Positions 27,818 to 51,085 of a stretch of 64,000 nucleotides of DNA are shown here, one piece after another; positions within the stretch are counted from its first letter, which is position 1, and each line of letters begins with the position of its first letter. The notes under the pieces were generated by a model, which searched no databases, was not told where the DNA came from, and saw only the letters and a program-made list of their open reading frames with translations. Origin of the DNA: Reclinomonas americana ATCC 50394 (lineage: Eukaryota); NCBI GenBank assembly GCA_048213135.1, contig PS015010.1, forward strand, positions 1,612,001-1,676,000. The letters run 5' to 3'. A program made the position numbers and the translations under genes.

Positions 27818-29206
27818 ATGGCATATGATGTAATCGTGCTCGGCAGCGGACCTGGTGGTTACCCTGCAGCAATCCGTGCAAGTCAGTTAGGCAAAAAAGT
27901 AGCTATCGTTGAAAAGGAAAGCCTCGGGGGCATTTGTCTCAACTGGGGTTGTATCCCTACCAAGGCCCTGCTGAAAAGCGCACAGGTATACGAGTATGCC
28001 AAACATGCGGAAAGCTACGGCATCACCCTCAGCAATCCCGGTGCTGATTTTGGCGGCGTTATCAAACGCAGCCGCGGTGTGGCGGATAAAATGAGCAAGG
28101 GCGTTCAGTTCCTGATGAAGAAGAATAAAATTGATGTTATCATGGGCTTTGGCAAACTGCTGGCTCCCGGTAAACTGGAAGTAACGGCTGCCGATGGTAC
28201 CAAACAGGTGGTGGAAGCTAAAAATATAGTTGTAGCTACAGGCGGCAGGTCAAGGCAACTGCCTGCGATGCCCATCGACGGTAAAAAGATCATCGGCTAC
28301 CGCGAAGCGATGGTACTGCCCGAAATGCCCAAAAGCATGATCATCTGCGGCAGCGGCGCCATCGGCTCCGAGTTCGCTTATTTCTACAACAGCATGGGCA
28401 CCAAATGCACCATTGTTGAGTTTATGCCCAGGATCGTTCCGGTGGAAGATGAGGACATCAGCAAAGAACTGGAAAAACAATTCAAAAAACAGGGTATCGA
28501 TATCATGACCAGCAGCGAGGTAACCAAAGTGGATACCAGCGGGAATGGCGTGAAAGCCACCGTTAAGACGGCTGCAGGCGAACAGGTGCTGGAAGCCGAC
28601 ATCCTCCTGAGTGCTGTAGGCGTGATCGCTAACCTGGAAGGTATTGGTCTCGAAGAACTGGGCATTAAAACCGAAAAAGGGAAGATCATTGTGGATGCTA
28701 ACCAGCAGACCAATATACCTGGTATTTATGCCATCGGCGATTGTACCCCGGGCCAGGCCCTGGCACACGTTGCCACCAAAGAAGGTATCAATGCCGCTGA
28801 ACACCTGAGCGGCCATCACCCTGAACCTATGGATTACAACAATATCCCCGGTTGTACTTACTGCTCGCCCGAGATCGCTTCTGTAGGCTATACTGAAAAA
28901 GCGGCCAAAGAAGCCGGGTACGAGATCAAAGTGGGTAAATTCCCCTTCATGGCCAGCGGTAAAGCCAGCGCGGCCGGCGCTACCGAAGGTTTTGTAAAAG
29001 TGATCTACGATGCCAAATACGGTGAATTCCTGGGTTGCCATATGATCGGTATGAACGTAACTGAACTGATCGCCGAAGCGGTTACCGCCCGTAAACTGGA
29101 AACCACGGCCCACGAAATACTCAATGCCGTGCACCCGCACCCTACTATGAGCGAAGGTCTTAAAGAAGCTACCGCCGCGGCTTATGGTGAGGCCATCGAC
29201 ATTTAA
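27818..29206 (+). CDS. lpdA: Dihydrolipoyl dehydrogenase (E3)
   Basis: GSGPGGY, GGICLNWGCIPTK, HPHPTMSE. Confidence 0.96.
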   Translation: MAYDVIVLGSGPGGYPAAIRASQLGKKVAIVEKESLGGICLNWGCIPTKALLKSAQVYEYAKHAESYGITLSNPGADFGGVIKRSRGVADKMSKGVQFLMKKNKIDVIMGFGKLLAPGKLEVTAADGTKQVVEAKNIVVATGGRSRQLPAMPIDGKKIIGYREAMVLPEMPKSMIICGSGAIGSEFAYFYNSMGTKCTIVEFMPRIVPVEDEDISKELEKQFKKQGIDIMTSSEVTKVDTSGNGVKATVKTAAGEQVLEADILLSAVGVIANLEGIGLEELGIKTEKGKIIVDANQQTNIPGIYAIGDCTPGQALAHVATKEGINAAEHLSGHHPEPMDYNNIPGCTYCSPEIASVGYTEKAAKEAGYEIKVGKFPFMASGKASAAGATEGFVKVIYDAKYGEFLGCHMIGMNVTELIAEAVTARKLETTAHEILNAVHPHPTMSEGLKEATAAAYGEAIDI

Positions 29207-29230
29207 TAACACACCGGCTTTCAAATACGC

Positions 29231-29261
29231 AAAAAGCCATCCAATTAAGGGTGGCTTTTTT
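29231..29261 (+). terminator. Intrinsic terminator after lpdA
   Basis: aaaaagccatcc/gggtggctttttt stem-loop. Confidence 0.75.
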
Positions 29262-29623
29262 GCGCTGGTATTAGGAAGAGACCTGGAAGATCGTCTGCAG
29301 GCAACAGCATACCTGCCCATTCAAGGAATGGCGCCTTGCCAGAATAATATAGGAATGGTTAAAAGTTAATTATGAGACCAGTCGGCCTGGGCCGCATTTG
29401 AAAAAAAGTCCCGGAATGAAAAGAATACAACACCACATATCAGCATCTTCTCCCTGCTGTATACAGATTAAAAGGGGACAGTTTTCATAATCCGCACGGT
29501 TATTAATGTTATAGACGAAAATAACCAGCAAATGGTTGCAACACCTAATAGAAGCCTGTCCATTTACAGTTGCTTTTGAACTATTCCCGTTGTAATTTGT
29601 ATTCAGATTAAACAGTTTCTTCT

Positions 29624-30089: not shown

Positions 30090-31640
30090 CTACCTATGCC
30101 TGCTCGCCAGGTATTTCTGGTGAATGATCTCCCCCATTGGTTTTTCATACACTTTACTTTCCACCCAACTGATGATGTCAAGGTAAGCGAATGCCCTGGT
30201 CTCAAAACGGTTCTTCTCAAACTGTTTGATATTGTGCAGGAACTTTTCCAGTCCGGGTTTGAGCGCTTTGGCCGATACGTAAAAATTATTCCGCAGGAAA
30301 CGGAACATCTCCTCTTCCACCTCCGTGAGGTTCTCCATTTTCGACATAAAACGGTATACCGACTTGGTGAGTGATTCAATGATAGCGTCATTACCCAACT
30401 CAAAATGCGCCATCAGGTGCAGCAGGCGGGCATAACAATGCAGGTCGATCCGGAGATCCACCGGTCCGTTGATGATCTTTTGCAGGTAATCGATCGATGC
30501 TTCATAATCGCCATTGCCAAAATACATCATGGCCGTTTTGTACTGTATCACCAGTACCCGGTGCCGGTCGATATACAGGCTGAACTCATCCAATCCTTTT
30601 TCAATCTCCGCTACAATCTTTGTTCCTTCTTTGAACGTTCCTTTCATCAGGTGCTGGTTGATGCGGGCGCTGGACAGGTAAACAAAAGTCTGCATCCGGA
30701 AATTATGAAACTGGGTGGCCGCTTCCGATTGGGCGAAGCGTTCAAATTTATGCAGGAAGTAATCGAACAGTTTATAATTGCGCAGGTCGAAGTTGGCAGT
30801 AAGCAGGTTGTGCATGCCTTTGATGTAATGTCCCGTTTCCACGGAGATCATCAGCGGATCGCTTTCAAACAGCCTTGTCCATTTGCGGCTGTAACGGTAA
30901 TACATCAGGAAATCCTGGCGCACAAAGGCATACCAGCAATAACTCTGGAACAGGTAGAGCTGTTCATAAAACCCTTTGCTCTGTTTCGCTTCCGGGGGCA
31001 GGCTGGCCCTGAAGAATTCCTTTACACCGGTCTCGTCCTTTTCGTTACGGGCATGCCCGTTCATCACGTACCAGCGGTACAGTTGCAGGGCCAGGTTGGA
31101 GAGTTTGGTGATCAGTGTTCTTTGCGTATTCACTTCCTCCGCCTCCGCGGTCAGCATATCCACCTTGCCTTCGCCGCTGCGGGTAATGTGAAGGGTCTCA
31201 ATCTTCTTTTCGAGCGAGATCACCTGGATAAGAAAAGTTTCCTGGTGGTACTGCTTGGCCAGGTCCTTTACCTTTTCCAGCGTTTTGAGGCTTTGCAGGT
31301 ACAGCCCCTTATTATAAAGGATACGGGCGTAATCGAGCTGTTCATGCAACTGCAGGTCGATGCTTTCCGTGCTCTTCAGCAGGCGCAGGCTGGCCAGCAA
31401 TTCCTTGTACAGGTGGGCTTTAAGATTGGCCAGTTGCGGTTTTTGTACTACCGTACGGAGTTTTTTAAGGAGGATGGCCTCATTATAGTCCGCCATTTTA
31501 TCAATAGCGTCAAAAAGCTGTACAATCTTAAGGTCTTCCTTGGAGGAACTCCTTTTGATATAGAGCTTGAAATGCCTTTTTTCTGACTTTTCGAGGGAAT
31601 GAATCAACTGAAATAATATATCTGCCGAGCGGTTGGACAT
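30090..31640 (-). CDS. Conserved hypothetical alpha-helical (TPR-like) cytoplasmic protein
   Basis: 516 aa; N-terminal LFQLIHSLEKSEKRHFKLY basic helical domain, then TPR-like repeats (YFGNGDYEASIDYLQKII); no signal peptide. Confidence 0.8.
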   Translation of the reverse strand: MSNRSADILFQLIHSLEKSEKRHFKLYIKRSSSKEDLKIVQLFDAIDKMADYNEAILLKKLRTVVQKPQLANLKAHLYKELLASLRLLKSTESIDLQLHEQLDYARILYNKGLYLQSLKTLEKVKDLAKQYHQETFLIQVISLEKKIETLHITRSGEGKVDMLTAEAEEVNTQRTLITKLSNLALQLYRWYVMNGHARNEKDETGVKEFFRASLPPEAKQSKGFYEQLYLFQSYCWYAFVRQDFLMYYRYSRKWTRLFESDPLMISVETGHYIKGMHNLLTANFDLRNYKLFDYFLHKFERFAQSEAATQFHNFRMQTFVYLSSARINQHLMKGTFKEGTKIVAEIEKGLDEFSLYIDRHRVLVIQYKTAMMYFGNGDYEASIDYLQKIINGPVDLRIDLHCYARLLHLMAHFELGNDAIIESLTKSVYRFMSKMENLTEVEEEMFRFLRNNFYVSAKALKPGLEKFLHNIKQFEKNRFETRAFAYLDIISWVESKVYEKPMGEIIHQKYLASRHR

Positions 31641-31753
31641 CATAATCTGATTTATCTGGAACACAGTCCTGTAAAGAGTTTCGGGTCAAAAACCCGGTTT
31701 TAAAGGGGGTATAATCCCGTTAAACTTGGTTAGGATCATAGAATTATCCGTCT

Positions 31754-31761
31754 TAGTTTTG
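31754..31761 (+). promoter_or_regulatory. Bacteroidota sigma70 -7 element (TAGTTTTG)
   Basis: Matches TAnnTTTG; no + strand gene follows before 33087. Confidence 0.6.
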
Positions 31762-31766
31762 ATCTC

Positions 31767-31950
31767 AGAAAGACGAACAATTCAGTATAGCAGGCAATCG
31801 TTAAAGGAAAAACAATCAATCGTTAGAAGATACCTGAAGTACCCAACTGCTGATTAAGACAGCAAAGAAAAGAAAAAAACAAAGAGTTTTTCATATAGCA
31901 AGCAATCGTTAAAAAGTCATTCCGTTTCTACGGAGTGACTATTTTATTTT
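31767..31950 (+). ncRNA. Candidate small RNA with repeated (TATAGCARG)CAATCGTTA motif
   Basis: Promoter upstream; no ATG in the region; 20-nt direct repeat at 31786-31805 and 31894-31913; third core at 31817-31825; terminal hairpin plus T-rich tail. Confidence 0.55.
31915..31950 (+). terminator. Intrinsic terminator hairpin (possibly bidirectional)
   Basis: agtcattccg-TTTCTA-cggagtgact 10-bp stem then attttatttt; A-run before it. Confidence 0.7.
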
Positions 31951-32147
31951 GCAAGTATAGGTAATAATTTGATAACAATCAAATGTGAAAATGAGACAAT
32001 TTGAAAATGTGCAAATTGGAATGTGATAATACAATAATATGACGGTTAGATAAGGTCTTGGGATTGTTCAACTGCCAGGTACGATAAAAGCCTGCCGCAA
32101 ACAGAAAAAATTGGCACATTAGCATATTCGCATATTACCTCATTAAC

Positions 32148-32909
32148 TTAGCTTTTTCCGCCAAATACTTTCTTCAATATATCTGTCACCTGTGCTGCAG
32201 GATCTTTCCGTATTTTCTGTTCTTCCAGTCCTACATTGTAAAAGAGTCCGCTGAGTGCACGCTCGGTTACAAAAGCGGTAAGATCGGTATTCACCTGGTC
32301 TTTGGAGAAACGGTTATAATTGGTAAAAACATCTTTCCAGTATTTGGTGGCATTTACTTTAGCCAGCGAGGTTTCTATCACCGGGCGGAATTTTTCGGTA
32401 AGCGCCGTGGTGGTGGTTTTCTTTAAATAGTCCGTGGCCGCGAAATCGCCGCCGCGTAATATCTGCAACCCGTCCTGTATGCTCATGCCTTTAATAGCGT
32501 TCCAGAAAATAGGTGCCACATCTTTGGCTGCATCTTCTGCCGCCCTGTTCATGGAAAGAATGGCATTATCCACCAGTTTACCCATACCAAAACTGCGGAG
32601 CGTACGTTCCACTTTTTTCGCCTCTTCCGGCATCAGTATTTTAATGGCCGCGTTGGCAAAAAAGCCGTCCAGTTGCCCGAGTTTTTTACTGCTGTTCTCT
32701 GTACCTACTTTCAGTGCCTCTTTCAGTCCGCTGATGATCTCGTCATTACTGAGCCCATTGCCAGTGCCGCCAATAGCGCTGGACACTTTACCCAGCACCC
32801 CGCTGGAGTCTTTTTTGGAAGCCTTGTTCAGGAGATCTTTTAATGTCTGGGCCGATGCGGAAGAACCGATAATAAGGCCTGCGGTAACGAGGGTAATGAG
32901 TTTTTTCAT
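32148..32909 (-). CDS. DUF4197 domain protein
   Basis: GLKEAL, SMNRAAEDA, ATDYLKK, EEQKIRKDPAA. Confidence 0.9.
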   Translation of the reverse strand: MKKLITLVTAGLIIGSSASAQTLKDLLNKASKKDSSGVLGKVSSAIGGTGNGLSNDEIISGLKEALKVGTENSSKKLGQLDGFFANAAIKILMPEEAKKVERTLRSFGMGKLVDNAILSMNRAAEDAAKDVAPIFWNAIKGMSIQDGLQILRGGDFAATDYLKKTTTTALTEKFRPVIETSLAKVNATKYWKDVFTNYNRFSKDQVNTDLTAFVTERALSGLFYNVGLEEQKIRKDPAAQVTDILKKVFGGKS

Positions 32910-49599: not shown

Positions 49600-49627
49600 A
49601 TTAGCACACCGATTAAGGGGAAATAGT

Positions 49628-49635
49628 TACCTTTG
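49628..49635 (+). promoter_or_regulatory. sigma70 -7 element (TACCTTTG) for the E2 gene; ~90-nt leader with a TGCCTGCA/TGCAGGCA hairpin
   Basis: Consensus TAnnTTTG match upstream of ATG 49730. Confidence 0.6.
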
Positions 49636-49729
49636 CCCATTCTTAAAACAATGCCTGCATTGCCCGGTTGTTACCGCCTGCAGGCAGTATACGATTGCTT
49701 GTAACCAAAAACATTTCTAAAATTATTGT

Positions 49730-51085
49730 ATGAGTCTAGTTGATTTAGTCATGCCGAAACTGGGTGAAAGTATCATGGAAGCCACCATCCTGAAATGGCA
49801 CAAGAAACCCGGTGATGCGATCAAACAGGATGAAACAGTGCTGGATATCGCTACCGACAAAGTGGACAGCGAAGTACCCTCCACCGCTGAAGGTGTGCTG
49901 GAAGAGGTATTATTCAAAGAGAATGACGTAGTGCCCATTGGTACCGTTATTGCCCGTATCCGCTCCGGGGCAGCTGCCGCAACCGCAACTCCCGCCGCCA
50001 GCAGCAGTCCGCAGCAGTTTGAAGAGGCCCGCGTGGTAGAGGAGATCCCTTACCAGCCTACCGCCAGCGCAGCCGCACAGGCCACCACCACTTCCGGCAC
50101 CGGCAAAATGCGTTTTTATTCCCCGCTGGTACTTAATATCGCCCAGCAGGAAGGCATCAGCATGGCCGAACTGGAAAATATCCCGGGAACCGGGCAGGAC
50201 GGCAGGGTAAGCAAAAAAGATATCCTGGCCTATGTAGGCGCCAAAAAATCCGGTAAAGTAGCCGATGCTCCCGCTACGATAGCCCCCGCCCGCCCGGCAC
50301 AGGAAGTAACCGTCATACCAACAGAACAGGCTGTACCGAAAGAAAGCAGTTCGCAGGTACCGGCCGTATATTCCGGCAACGTGGAAGTAATTGAAATGGA
50401 CCGTATGCGCAAACTGATCGCCAAGCATATGGTGGACAGCAAACATACTTCGCCACACGTAACCAGCTTCGCGGAATGTGATGTTACCAACCTGGTATTG
50501 TGGAGAGAAAAAGTGAAAAAGGATTTTGAGAAACGTGAAGGAGAAAAGATCACGTTCACCCCGCTGTTCATTGAAGCCATTGTAAAATGCATCAAGAAAT
50601 ACCCATGGCTGAGCAGTTCGGTAGACGGCGACAAGATCATTGTGAAGAAAGACCTCAATATAGGCATGGCCACCGCCCTGCCCTCCGGCAACCTCATTGT
50701 ACCGGTAATTAAGAATGCCGACCAGCTGAACCTGGTGGGACTGACCAAACAGGTGAACGGACTGGCCAATGCTGCCCGCAACGGCAAACTGAAACCCGAT
50801 GATACCACCGGCGGCACTTTTACCCTCACCAATGTGGGCACTTTCGGCAGTATTATGGGCACTCCCATCATCAACCAGCCGCAGGTAGCCATTATGGCCG
50901 TAGGCGCCATCAAAAAAAGGCCGATGGTGATTGAAACGCCCCAGGGCGACAGTATCGCTATCCGTCATATGATGTACATTTCACTGAGTTATGATCATCG
51001 TATCATCGACGGTGCATTAGGAAGCACCTTCCTGAATGCCGTATCAAAAGAACTGGAGAATTTTGATATATCGAGAAGTATTTAA
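49730..51085 (+). CDS. 2-oxoacid dehydrogenase E2, dihydrolipoamide acyltransferase (branched-chain-type likely)
   Basis: Lipoyl domain ATDKVDSEVPS, E3-binding GTGQDGRVSKKD, catalytic YDHRIIDG. Confidence 0.93.
   Translation: MSLVDLVMPKLGESIMEATILKWHKKPGDAIKQDETVLDIATDKVDSEVPSTAEGVLEEVLFKENDVVPIGTVIARIRSGAAAATATPAASSSPQQFEEARVVEEIPYQPTASAAAQATTTSGTGKMRFYSPLVLNIAQQEGISMAELENIPGTGQDGRVSKKDILAYVGAKKSGKVADAPATIAPARPAQEVTVIPTEQAVPKESSSQVPAVYSGNVEVIEMDRMRKLIAKHMVDSKHTSPHVTSFAECDVTNLVLWREKVKKDFEKREGEKITFTPLFIEAIVKCIKKYPWLSSSVDGDKIIVKKDLNIGMATALPSGNLIVPVIKNADQLNLVGLTKQVNGLANAARNGKLKPDDTTGGTFTLTNVGTFGSIMGTPIINQPQVAIMAVGAIKKRPMVIETPQGDSIAIRHMMYISLSYDHRIIDGALGSTFLNAVSKELENFDISRSI

Follow-up and report, generated by a model that had tools for sequence, protein, structure and literature searches.

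A conserved non-coding RNA with a repeated motif, divergently paired with a distant RusR-like gene, and its possible tie to leucine metabolism

The subject of the present work is a small RNA (sRNA) gene and the gene that diverges from it, which encodes a protein of 516 amino acids (aa), in a stretch of DNA of 64,000 nucleotides (nt) that corresponds to positions 1,612,001 to 1,676,000 of the forward strand of contig PS015010.1 in assembly GCA_048213135.1, deposited under the name Reclinomonas americana ATCC 50394. The whole of this stretch is referred to as the window, and positions in it are counted from its first letter. An earlier reading made from the sequence alone had proposed that the gap upstream of the 516-aa gene encodes an sRNA with a repeated motif. 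The comparative analysis described here substantiates the core of that proposal: a non-coding RNA which is bounded by a promoter and a terminator, and which carries a repeated and mostly single-stranded motif, forms a conserved module of two parts with the divergent 516-aa gene.

The locus and the anatomy of the RNA

The features of the locus are the following.

30090 to 31640, minus strand: gene of the 516-aa putative regulator (P0001), a distant member of the BT2802/RusR family, modelled as an all-helical protein with a TPR-like superhelix.
31641 to 31753, no strand assigned: divergent control region of fixed length common to the regulator and the sRNA, with boxes that are conserved in a profile of 78 upstream regions.
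31754 to 31761, plus strand: -7 promoter box of the sRNA, of Bacteroidota type, TAGTTTTG.
31767 to 31950, plus strand: sRNA of about 185 nt, its 5' end inferred from the -7 box and its 3' end from the terminator tail.
31786 to 31805, plus strand: motif copy 1, TATAGCAGGCAATCGTTAAA.
31813 to 31828, plus strand: motif copy 2, degenerate, CAATCAATCGTTAGAA.
31848 to 31864, plus strand: small internal hairpin (TGCTG at 31848-31852, CAGCA at 31860-31864).
31886 to 31913, plus strand: 3' motif block TTTTTCATATAGCAAGCAATCGTTAAA, the best-conserved part of the RNA.
31915 to 31950, plus strand: intrinsic terminator (stem 31915-31940) with the conserved loop GTTTCTAC, followed by a T-rich tail.

The -7 box, three motif copies, the small hairpin and the terminator had all been recognized in the sequence-only reading, and each of them is present where it had been placed. 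The same reading had described the arrangement of the locus as divergent, which holds for the 516-aa gene; the minus strand, however, carries both flanking genes, namely the 516-aa gene (30090-31640) and a DUF4197 gene (32148-32909), so that the sRNA is convergent with the DUF4197 gene. An in-frame ATG at 31643, 3 nt upstream of the annotated one, is an alternative start of the 516-aa gene.

Sigma-A promoters of Bacteroidota combine a -7 element of the form TAnnTTTG with a TTG-type element about 20 nt upstream, and this pattern is found at the sRNA, where a tAAgTTG box (approximately 31723-31728 in the window) sits 22-25 nt upstream of the -7 box. It is the last of three consensus boxes in the control region, the others being AAAc.Ca.TaC.g.aAAGGgTTT and tTTtagCaTaaTaaAAt; the region as a whole presumably holds one or more binding sites of the regulator together with the promoter of the 516-aa gene.

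Within the RNA, the motif copies TATAGCAGGCAATCGTTAAA at 31786-31805 and TATAGCAAGCAATCGTTAAA at 31894-31913 are 95% alike, and the small hairpin takes the form GCTGA-n-TCAGC in an alignment of 13 close relatives. The terminator stem at 31915-31940 comprises 11 pairs and is followed by the tail ATTTTATTTT; between 31400 and 32300, two terminator-like sites are observed, compared to 0.4 expected from shuffled sequences. Read on the minus strand, the hairpin has 5 pairs followed by TTTTT, and it may on that strand also stop the DUF4197 transcript. The absence of ATG from the RNA, which had been remarked earlier, is borne out for 31766-31950. A small open reading frame (ORF), in which ATGGCAAGCAATCGTTAG would encode MASNR in many relatives, was considered and rejected because no such frame is conserved: the window reads ATA instead of ATG, and AAA variants without a stop occur.

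The 10-nt core of the motif, GCAATCGTTA, has 5 matches in the window with at most one mismatch, compared to 5.15 expected, and is thus not overrepresented; its only peculiarity within the window is clustering, in that three of the five matches fall within 118 nt. The significance of the motif must therefore come from comparison with other genomes. A comparison with Rfam, which had been proposed earlier for this locus, finds none of the Rfam 15 covariance models matching the gap 31641-32147 at E<=10, and the sRNA is a family absent from Rfam.

Two observations concern the surroundings of the locus. Right after the terminator, at 31982-32042, an AT-rich sequence of 23 nt, AATGTGAAAATGAGACAATTTGA, is repeated directly as two variants, which makes three copies in all. 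At 29162-29267 on the plus strand, weak Rfam matches to Phe_leader, STnc50 and RNAI pile up, all of them far below the gathering scores and all of them on a terminator hairpin, GCCATCC...GGGTGGCTTTTTT, which lies just after the lpd gene.

Conservation and distribution of the module

Relatives of P0001 with 64-80% identity were found in at least 523 stretches of the genome collection, and the best 80 loci, all of the Chitinophagaceae type (Ferruginibacter, Segetibacter, Flavisolibacter, Filimonas and others), were used for comparison; these 80 sources comprise 79 loci and the window itself, and all were read in the orientation of the window's plus strand. A box TAnnTTT[GA] lies 114-119 nt from the ATG of the regulator gene in 64 of the 80 sources, and a block CA(T/A)ATnGCAAG... 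follows further downstream in 71, which confirms the earlier expectation that promoter, motif and terminator would be conserved together beside homologues of the protein. Box, block and T-run occur together in 69 sources, and the RNAs which they define are 118-230 nt long.

When 48 of these RNAs are aligned, the middle is variable and the 3' block C-A-.-A-T-.-GCAAGCAATCG is invariant; there are 17 invariant columns in the 48 sequences, among them C A. A T. G C A A G C A A T C G. Because this 17-nt block is invariant although the adjacent protein is only 64-80% identical, selection on the RNA or DNA word itself is indicated. The repeated unit is the 11-base motif GCA(A/G)GCAATCG. When up to two mismatches are allowed, 12 of the 69 RNAs have a single copy of it, 36 have two and 21 have three, and the motif positions are predicted to be unpaired with a fraction of 0.61, compared to 0.48 for the rest of the RNA. 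For the terminator, RNAalifold predicts 9 pairs from 47 sequences, 8 of which show compensatory changes, and the loop GTTTC(T/C)AC is nearly constant across the aligned RNAs; the element thus has the stem-loop and the U run of an intrinsic terminator, with a stem that is kept by covariation. Over 16 loci whose synteny was compared, the pair of regulator and RNA is kept and the other flanking genes are not, and a change of neighbouring gene leaves the hairpin and the motif in place at the RNA.

The exact 17-mer CATATRGCAAGCAATCG is present in 46 of 401 sampled genomes of the order Chitinophagales, in one to six copies each, and its reversed control in none of the 401. By hand comparison of coordinates, 33 of the 46 genomes have the motif immediately upstream of a P0001 homologue and in divergent orientation to it. 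On these data the sRNA family appears to be restricted to one clade of Chitinophagaceae, which are soil and water bacteria. Copies of the 3' module were also sought with a covariance model (R1), against which positions 31886-31947 of the window score 77.2 bits (E 2.9e-15). An R1 scan of 151 genomes of the order, in which 36 candidates per genome were scored, gave matches in 9 and was not used to describe the distribution. Five genomes hold 2, 2, 6, 8 and 3 R1 copies, one of which per genome adjoins a P0001 homologue. In all 21 of these matches the motif precedes the terminator on the transcribed strand, which argues for an element that works at the level of RNA rather than for a DNA operator.

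The additional R1 copies include tandem and dispersed duplicates and a few free-standing ones, and the duplicates in genome G004 each come with the entire promoter region copied alongside, the first codons of the regulator gene included. Tandem arrays of three to four sRNA genes were observed at G004:C6:397511-398645 (loci L084, L089 and L094), G375:C18:255136-256401 and G270:C1:597594-598517; those in G270 and G375 adjoin the regulator gene. In all five genomes examined, a module of motif plus terminator lies 60-91 nt past the stop codon of a gene for a lipoprotein of 60-87 aa. This lipoprotein is rich in Thr, Asp and Ala (MKKLLFVLALGAFAACG...; loci L083, L088, L090, L095, L097 and L098), and G003 has two such genes in tandem. 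In G005, at L093:1490-1631 on the minus strand, a module of the same kind directly follows a tRNA-Cys(GCA) gene. Further genomic matches to TATRGCAAGCAA, at 16 places, were set aside: most of them fall within an open frame or where a coding sequence begins (MASKK...), and the 16 places revealed no antisense RNA of the motif that is conserved.

A view of the transcribed region is provided by metatranscriptome contigs of a strain which is 95-99% identical to the window, in which the strand is not resolved. In run X4, a contig of 731 nt with a mean depth of 180.9 spans 31424-31977, and contigs of the flanking coding sequences have depths of 2.4-4.7; runs X2 and X3 have longer contigs across the region, with depths of 137 and 102. 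All three runs also contain short contigs (162-259 nt) that match the motif block only and have other flanks and a GTTTCTACAG hairpin; they appear to come from another member of the sRNA family. In the contigs of the related strain, positions 31978-32149 (172 nt) are replaced by 122 other letters, so that conservation stops at the terminator, and 32026-32133 are without cover, which is not evidence about transcription.

The regulator family and its leucine genes

The 516-aa protein matches the NCBIfam model NF058569 ('BT2802 family ribose utilization protein') over model positions 4-501 of 502, with 175.3 bits and an E-value of 2.4e-51. This score is far below the curated cut-off of 550, and the protein, judged by this profile, is homologous to the named ribose-utilisation family but outside it. 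No ribokinase or SusC-SusD ribose genes are found nearby, the neighbouring genes encoding a META-domain protein, Lpd, DUF4197 and Dpp7. Pfam gives a weak TPR match only, and a sequence-profile search of the PDB likewise gives weak TPR matches only, among them IFIT1 (E 0.019-0.048) over one TPR stretch; in the Protein Atlas, the protein falls among Bacteroidota clusters without names only. An AlphaFold2 (AF2) model of the protein (pLDDT, the predicted local distance difference test, 93.3) is all-helical, and a Foldseek search with the full model returns TPR superhelices, including Rap and NprR at E-values of 1.3e-3 to 4.4e-3, with target-normalised TM (template modelling) scores of 0.53-0.61 and identities of 9-12% in a fold that is common. 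The description of the protein in the sequence-only reading, as an N-terminal helical domain followed by TPR-like helical repeats, agrees with this model. The family is large (6553 clusters at E<=0.001, with listed full-length members of about 510 aa), and the sources that name its proteins call them hypothetical protein.

BT2802 itself is RusR of the Bacteroides thetaiotaomicron ribose utilisation locus, a candidate regulator without known relatives. According to bioRxiv 10.1101/574913, growth on ribose depends on it, as does about 90% of the induction of rus. The activity of a PUL37 promoter reporter requires RusR (10.1101/2025.07.13.664583), and a fitness score of -4.3 on ribose is given for it.

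The wider family was sampled through 12 loci of Chitinophagales (L107-L118), which hold 13 more distant homologues with 39-61% identity. The regulator diverges from leuA in 7 of these 13 cases and from leuC in 4, the last two facing a P-II gene and a different gene, respectively, and a -7 box is found about 115 nt from the regulator ATG in 9. The identity of the divergent genes is confirmed by NCBIfam, with 542 bits for LeuA (cut-off 532) and 518-537 bits for LeuC (cut-off 510). Their leaders are short and have neither hairpin nor motif, so that the motif layer is specific to the clade which bears the sRNA. In RNA-bearing genomes the regulator is present as at least two paralogues, one facing the RNA and one facing leuA. 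In a maximum-likelihood tree with midpoint rooting, the 14 RNA-linked regulators form one clade (support 98/96), which sits among leuA-linked proteins and has L116, L115 and L118 as its successive neighbours. One member nested in this clade, at L117 (G340:C2:998900-1004000), is without the sRNA and faces a signal-peptide protein of unknown family, a probable case of secondary loss or replacement of the RNA.

Taken as a whole, these arrangements suggest that proteins of the BT2802/RusR-like family are local regulators which act on the divergent promoter, that the protein in the window would be a duplicated regulator of the leu type whose controlled unit is the sRNA, and that the signal which it senses may be related to leucine or branched-chain metabolism.

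A second connection with leucine comes from the leuA leaders of the genomes that bear the RNA. The divergent gene is leuA at 20 of the 21 paralogue loci examined in these genomes, and in 12 of the 20 leaders a hairpin of 12-20 pairs, followed by a T-run, starts a few bases past the -7 box. The loop of the hairpin has the form TA(T/G)AGCAAGCAAC in 7 of the 12 and the form GGCAGGCAA(T/A)CC-AAAA, which is that of the 5' copies of the sRNA, in 2; in the remaining 3, a clear motif is absent. Hairpins of the form GCAGGTTGTTT...AAACAACCTGC plus T-run, with the loop TATAGCAAGCAAC, were seen at L121-L124, L128, L130 and L131, and further leader hairpins at L129, L134-L136 and L138; an example is L123:746-815 on the minus strand. 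In an alignment of 11 leader sequences, 12 pairs are predicted for the stem, 4 of them with compensatory changes. Rfam gives no match at E<=1 to the leuA leaders of the 12 loci, with the exception of one chance snoRNA row. A covariance model of the leader (R2) finds the element only at leuA in all five of the genomes scanned, and no second R2 locus was found among the 150 candidates scored in each of the five, beyond reverse-strand echoes and one weak hit, so that among these candidates the leader element did not extend to a wider regulon. The leader hairpin looks like an undescribed leu attenuator.

Proposed function, rival explanations and significance

On balance, the RNA is probably a trans-acting sRNA which is regulated by the divergent sensor of BT2802/RusR type and which is tied to leucine metabolism through its motif. 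In the mechanism proposed, the metabolite-sensing 516-aa protein, with its TPR repeats and a possible helix-turn-helix (HTH) domain, would activate the divergent sRNA promoter in response to a leucine-related signal, and the sRNA would act in trans through the motif and so spread the signal of the sensor post-transcriptionally. The working part would be (U)AURGCARGCAAUCG, which is displayed one to three times and always once directly 5' of the terminator. The presence of the motif in the sRNA, in the loop of the leuA leader and in the 3' untranslated region (UTR) of the lipoprotein gene suggests that the RNA is wired into leucine or branched-chain metabolism. For the way in which the motif works, we lean slightly towards pairing with mRNA over action as a decoy, or some other mode.

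A candidate for such pairing was found within the window.

49691 to 49702, plus strand: candidate target site ACGATTGCTTGT, complementary to the motif (11 Watson-Crick pairs and one G-U pair).

Positions 49691-49701 form the only 11-mer in the window that is complementary to the repeat motif, and a G-U pair extends the complementarity to 49702. The site precedes the ATG of an E2 acyltransferase gene (49730-51085) by 28-39 nt, and the duplex energy of -21.2 kcal/mol is reached by a fraction of 0.007 of shuffles. Each of three related genomes has a SucB-type E2 gene above the cut-off, a long E2 gene of the pyruvate dehydrogenase (PDH) type, and this one, which by elimination probably encodes the E2 component of a branched-chain 2-oxoacid dehydrogenase; such an identity would agree with the tie to leucine proposed here. 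Of 11 orthologous 5' regions, 9 contain anti-motif 7-mers, compared to a mean of 1.67 and a maximum of 7 in 2000 shuffles. The 5' region of the E2 gene (49621-49729) also has a -7-like box, TACCTTTG, at 49628-49635, and CGATTG(C/T) words are often found near that box in related genomes.

Several results weigh against the reading of the RNA as a regulated, trans-acting sRNA, and they concern its target, its regulator and the RNA itself. An outstanding duplex energy is found in only 3 of the 11 orthologous E2 5' regions, a second set of orthologs has anti-motif words in 2 of 8, which is no better than shuffles, and some of the CGATTG-like words at E2 genes are upstream of the presumed -7 box and hence of the promoter; the E2 5' UTR, for which conservation is mixed, is accordingly put forward as a candidate target and as a lead only. 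The motif in the leuA leader is in the same sense as in the sRNA and cannot be used by a simple model in which the sRNA pairs with leuA, so that the word displayed is either one seed present in both RNAs or a binding site for one factor common to both. On the side of the regulator, the N-terminal 99 residues modelled alone (pLDDT 76) have no Foldseek match at E<=0.001, the best row having an E-value of 1.7, and the many rows of sigma-region-4/LuxR-type HTH domains that VIA-align returns for this domain, with Z of 5-6.5 and a root-mean-square deviation of about 2.1 A over about 60 residues, fall below the Z of 8 which is the noise bar for helical models; these rows suggest an N-terminal HTH. 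Palindromic operators were sought in the intergenic boxes and rejected, with inverted-repeat scores of 3.29 for box 1 (2.43 in shuffles) and 3.13 for box 2 (2.87), and the conserved intergenic boxes are in general not palindromic. The regulator gene has no exact motif beside it in 13 of the 46 motif genomes. The contig depths, finally, hint at a high abundance of the RNA, with DNA carry-over in the RNA libraries being possible and with strand and ends being inferred.

The explanation that survives best beside a regulated, pairing sRNA is that the RNA is a decoy, which is possible and regarded here as rather unlikely. The motif would bind a factor X, either a protein or another RNA, that also reads the loop of the leuA leader and there sets the level of read-through, and the sRNA, with one to three sites per molecule and up to four tandem genes, would titrate X when its sensor-regulator is active, following the logic of EutX/Rli55 and EutV or of anti-TRAP. 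The same sense of the motif in the sRNA, the leuA loop, the lipoprotein 3' UTR and the tRNA-Cys trailer fits one common ligand, the variable number of motifs per RNA and the arrays of sRNA genes are typical of titrating RNAs, and the position of the leuA hairpin approximately at the transcription start, which leaves no room for an upstream antiterminator, makes a trans factor acting on the loop of 15-25 nt plausible. On the other hand, there is no candidate for X, CsrA and Hfq each being found in none of five related genomes, the leader hairpin could simply be an attenuator or could serve as a stabilizing hairpin at the 5' end, and the motif is present in only 9 of the 20 leuA leaders; the extra genomic matches inspected also yielded no conserved antisense copy. 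A more specific form of the explanation, which we hold to be doubtful, makes the motif the site of a leucine-responsive factor that chooses between termination and read-through at the 5' terminator of leuA; the sRNA, driven by the duplicated leu sensor, would then be a multi-site decoy, and the copies in the 3' UTR and the tRNA trailer would be further sinks. If true, it would amount to a circuit of attenuation plus decoy in Bacteroidota, built from parts without described relatives, namely a RusR-type sensor, a motif displayed in a loop and a new RNA-binding factor.

That the RNA and the 516-aa protein are direct partners, so that the helical-repeat protein recognizes the repeated RNA motif and is titrated by the RNA or acts on it, is improbable. 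The strict conservation of the gene pair, the basic character of the N-terminal domain, the capacity of TPR-type repeats to bind RNA, to which the IFIT1 profile matches point, and the fact that the leuA-side paralogue faces a leader with the same motif are all consistent with it. The IFIT matches, however, are weak and cover a single TPR stretch, and RusR acts on promoter activity (10.1101/2025.07.13.664583). The spacing of about 115 nt between ATG and box is moreover kept in family members whose leaders have neither motif nor hairpin, which points to control at the level of DNA. Since this spacing is kept regardless of what the regulator faces (the RNA, leuA, leuC or a P-II gene), and since the protein is kin to RusR, a transcription factor that drives the RNA is likelier than an RNA-binding partner.

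It is very improbable that the RNA has no function in trans, with repeats that are DNA operators or a decaying duplicate of a leuA leader and with a hairpin that is the terminator of the DUF4197 gene: the hairpin can indeed terminate in both directions, a leader origin is plausible for RNAs whose linked regulators descend from leuA-linked ones, and the CGATTG-like words stand on either side of the E2 -7 box as DNA sites might, but DUF4197 is the neighbour in only 1 of the 16 loci (L016), the hairpin and the motif persist there and beside other neighbours, which contradicts the operator-and-terminator scenario that the earlier reading had itself named as its possible undoing, the constant strand and position of the motif and the covariation of the terminator stem speak against it, and the invariance of the 17-nt block beside a diverging protein indicates selection and not decay.

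A regulated, trans-acting sRNA, as preferred here, has parallels among known systems. GcvA/GcvB, OxyR/OxyS and SgrR/SgrS are enterobacterial divergent regulator-sRNA pairs. In these pairs, as here, the sRNA gene is back-to-back with the gene of a metabolite-sensing regulator, and the pair is conserved as a unit; GcvB is additionally tied to amino-acid metabolism, as the present RNA may be. The regulator here, in contrast, is neither of the LysR nor of the SgrR kind but belongs to an uncharacterised, BT2802/RusR-like family of Bacteroidota, and the motif is repeated and occurs also in an mRNA leader and in 3' UTRs; transcription of the RNA would depend on the regulator, as the promoter geometry shared with the leuA- and leuC-linked paralogues indirectly suggests. 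The synteny of SgrR/SgrS is treated in PMC2760817. RusR and the 516-aa protein are homologous over their full length (NF058569), and the genes of both adjoin a unit which they are thought to activate, but that unit is here a non-coding RNA (leuA in the closest paralogues), and ribokinase and SusC/D are absent nearby. The 516-aa protein may also resemble the RRNPP proteins (Rap, NprR, PlcR), which combine a small N-terminal helical/HTH domain with a ligand-sensing TPR superhelix; the identity to them, however, is 9-12%, they belong to another phylum, and no gene for a peptide signal was seen here.

Other parallels concern the motif. CsrB and RsmZ, to which the sequence-only reading had likened the RNA, are also bounded by promoter and terminator and also have a repeated single-stranded motif in variable copy number. 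The analogy fails in its specifics: the motif of CsrB and RsmZ is GGA, shown in many copies, mostly in hairpin loops, whereas here it is a word of 11-17 nt in one to three copies, the RNA having a single GGA (31807-31809), and the searches of the five related genomes that found no CsrA (PF02599), to which control genomes responded, and no Hfq (PF17209) leave no CsrA for such an RNA to bind there. In the case of EutX/Rli55, the recognition element of the sRNA is also present in the terminator region of an mRNA leader, and DapZ and GcvB are a 3' UTR-derived copy and a free-standing sRNA with a common element. The sharing of an element by the sRNA and a leader terminator here resembles the former, and the copies in 3' UTRs resemble the latter, but no riboswitch or ANTAR-type element was found here, and the hairpin of the leader stands right at the start of the leuA transcript. 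The architecture of a sensor gene and a divergent sRNA is known and its parts are new, and a motif held in common with a 5'-terminal leader terminator is unusual. No account of such an RNA, or of RusR homologues linked to leu genes, came up in a literature search that left supplementary files outside its scope.

Bacteroidota are not known to encode Hfq, ProQ or CsrA, and few of their sRNAs have a known trigger or mechanism. Post-transcriptional control in this phylum is poorly understood, and the locus described here adds a well-delimited sRNA family with a clear motif, whose probable dedicated regulator makes the trigger of the sRNA experimentally accessible. The locus also provides a functional lead for the many BT2802/RusR-like proteins that are called hypothetical, since 11 of the 13 distant members examined in the order adjoin leuA or leuC. 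The motif that is common to the sRNA, the leader terminator and the 3' UTRs provides a handle for finding an RNA-binding factor or a set of targets.

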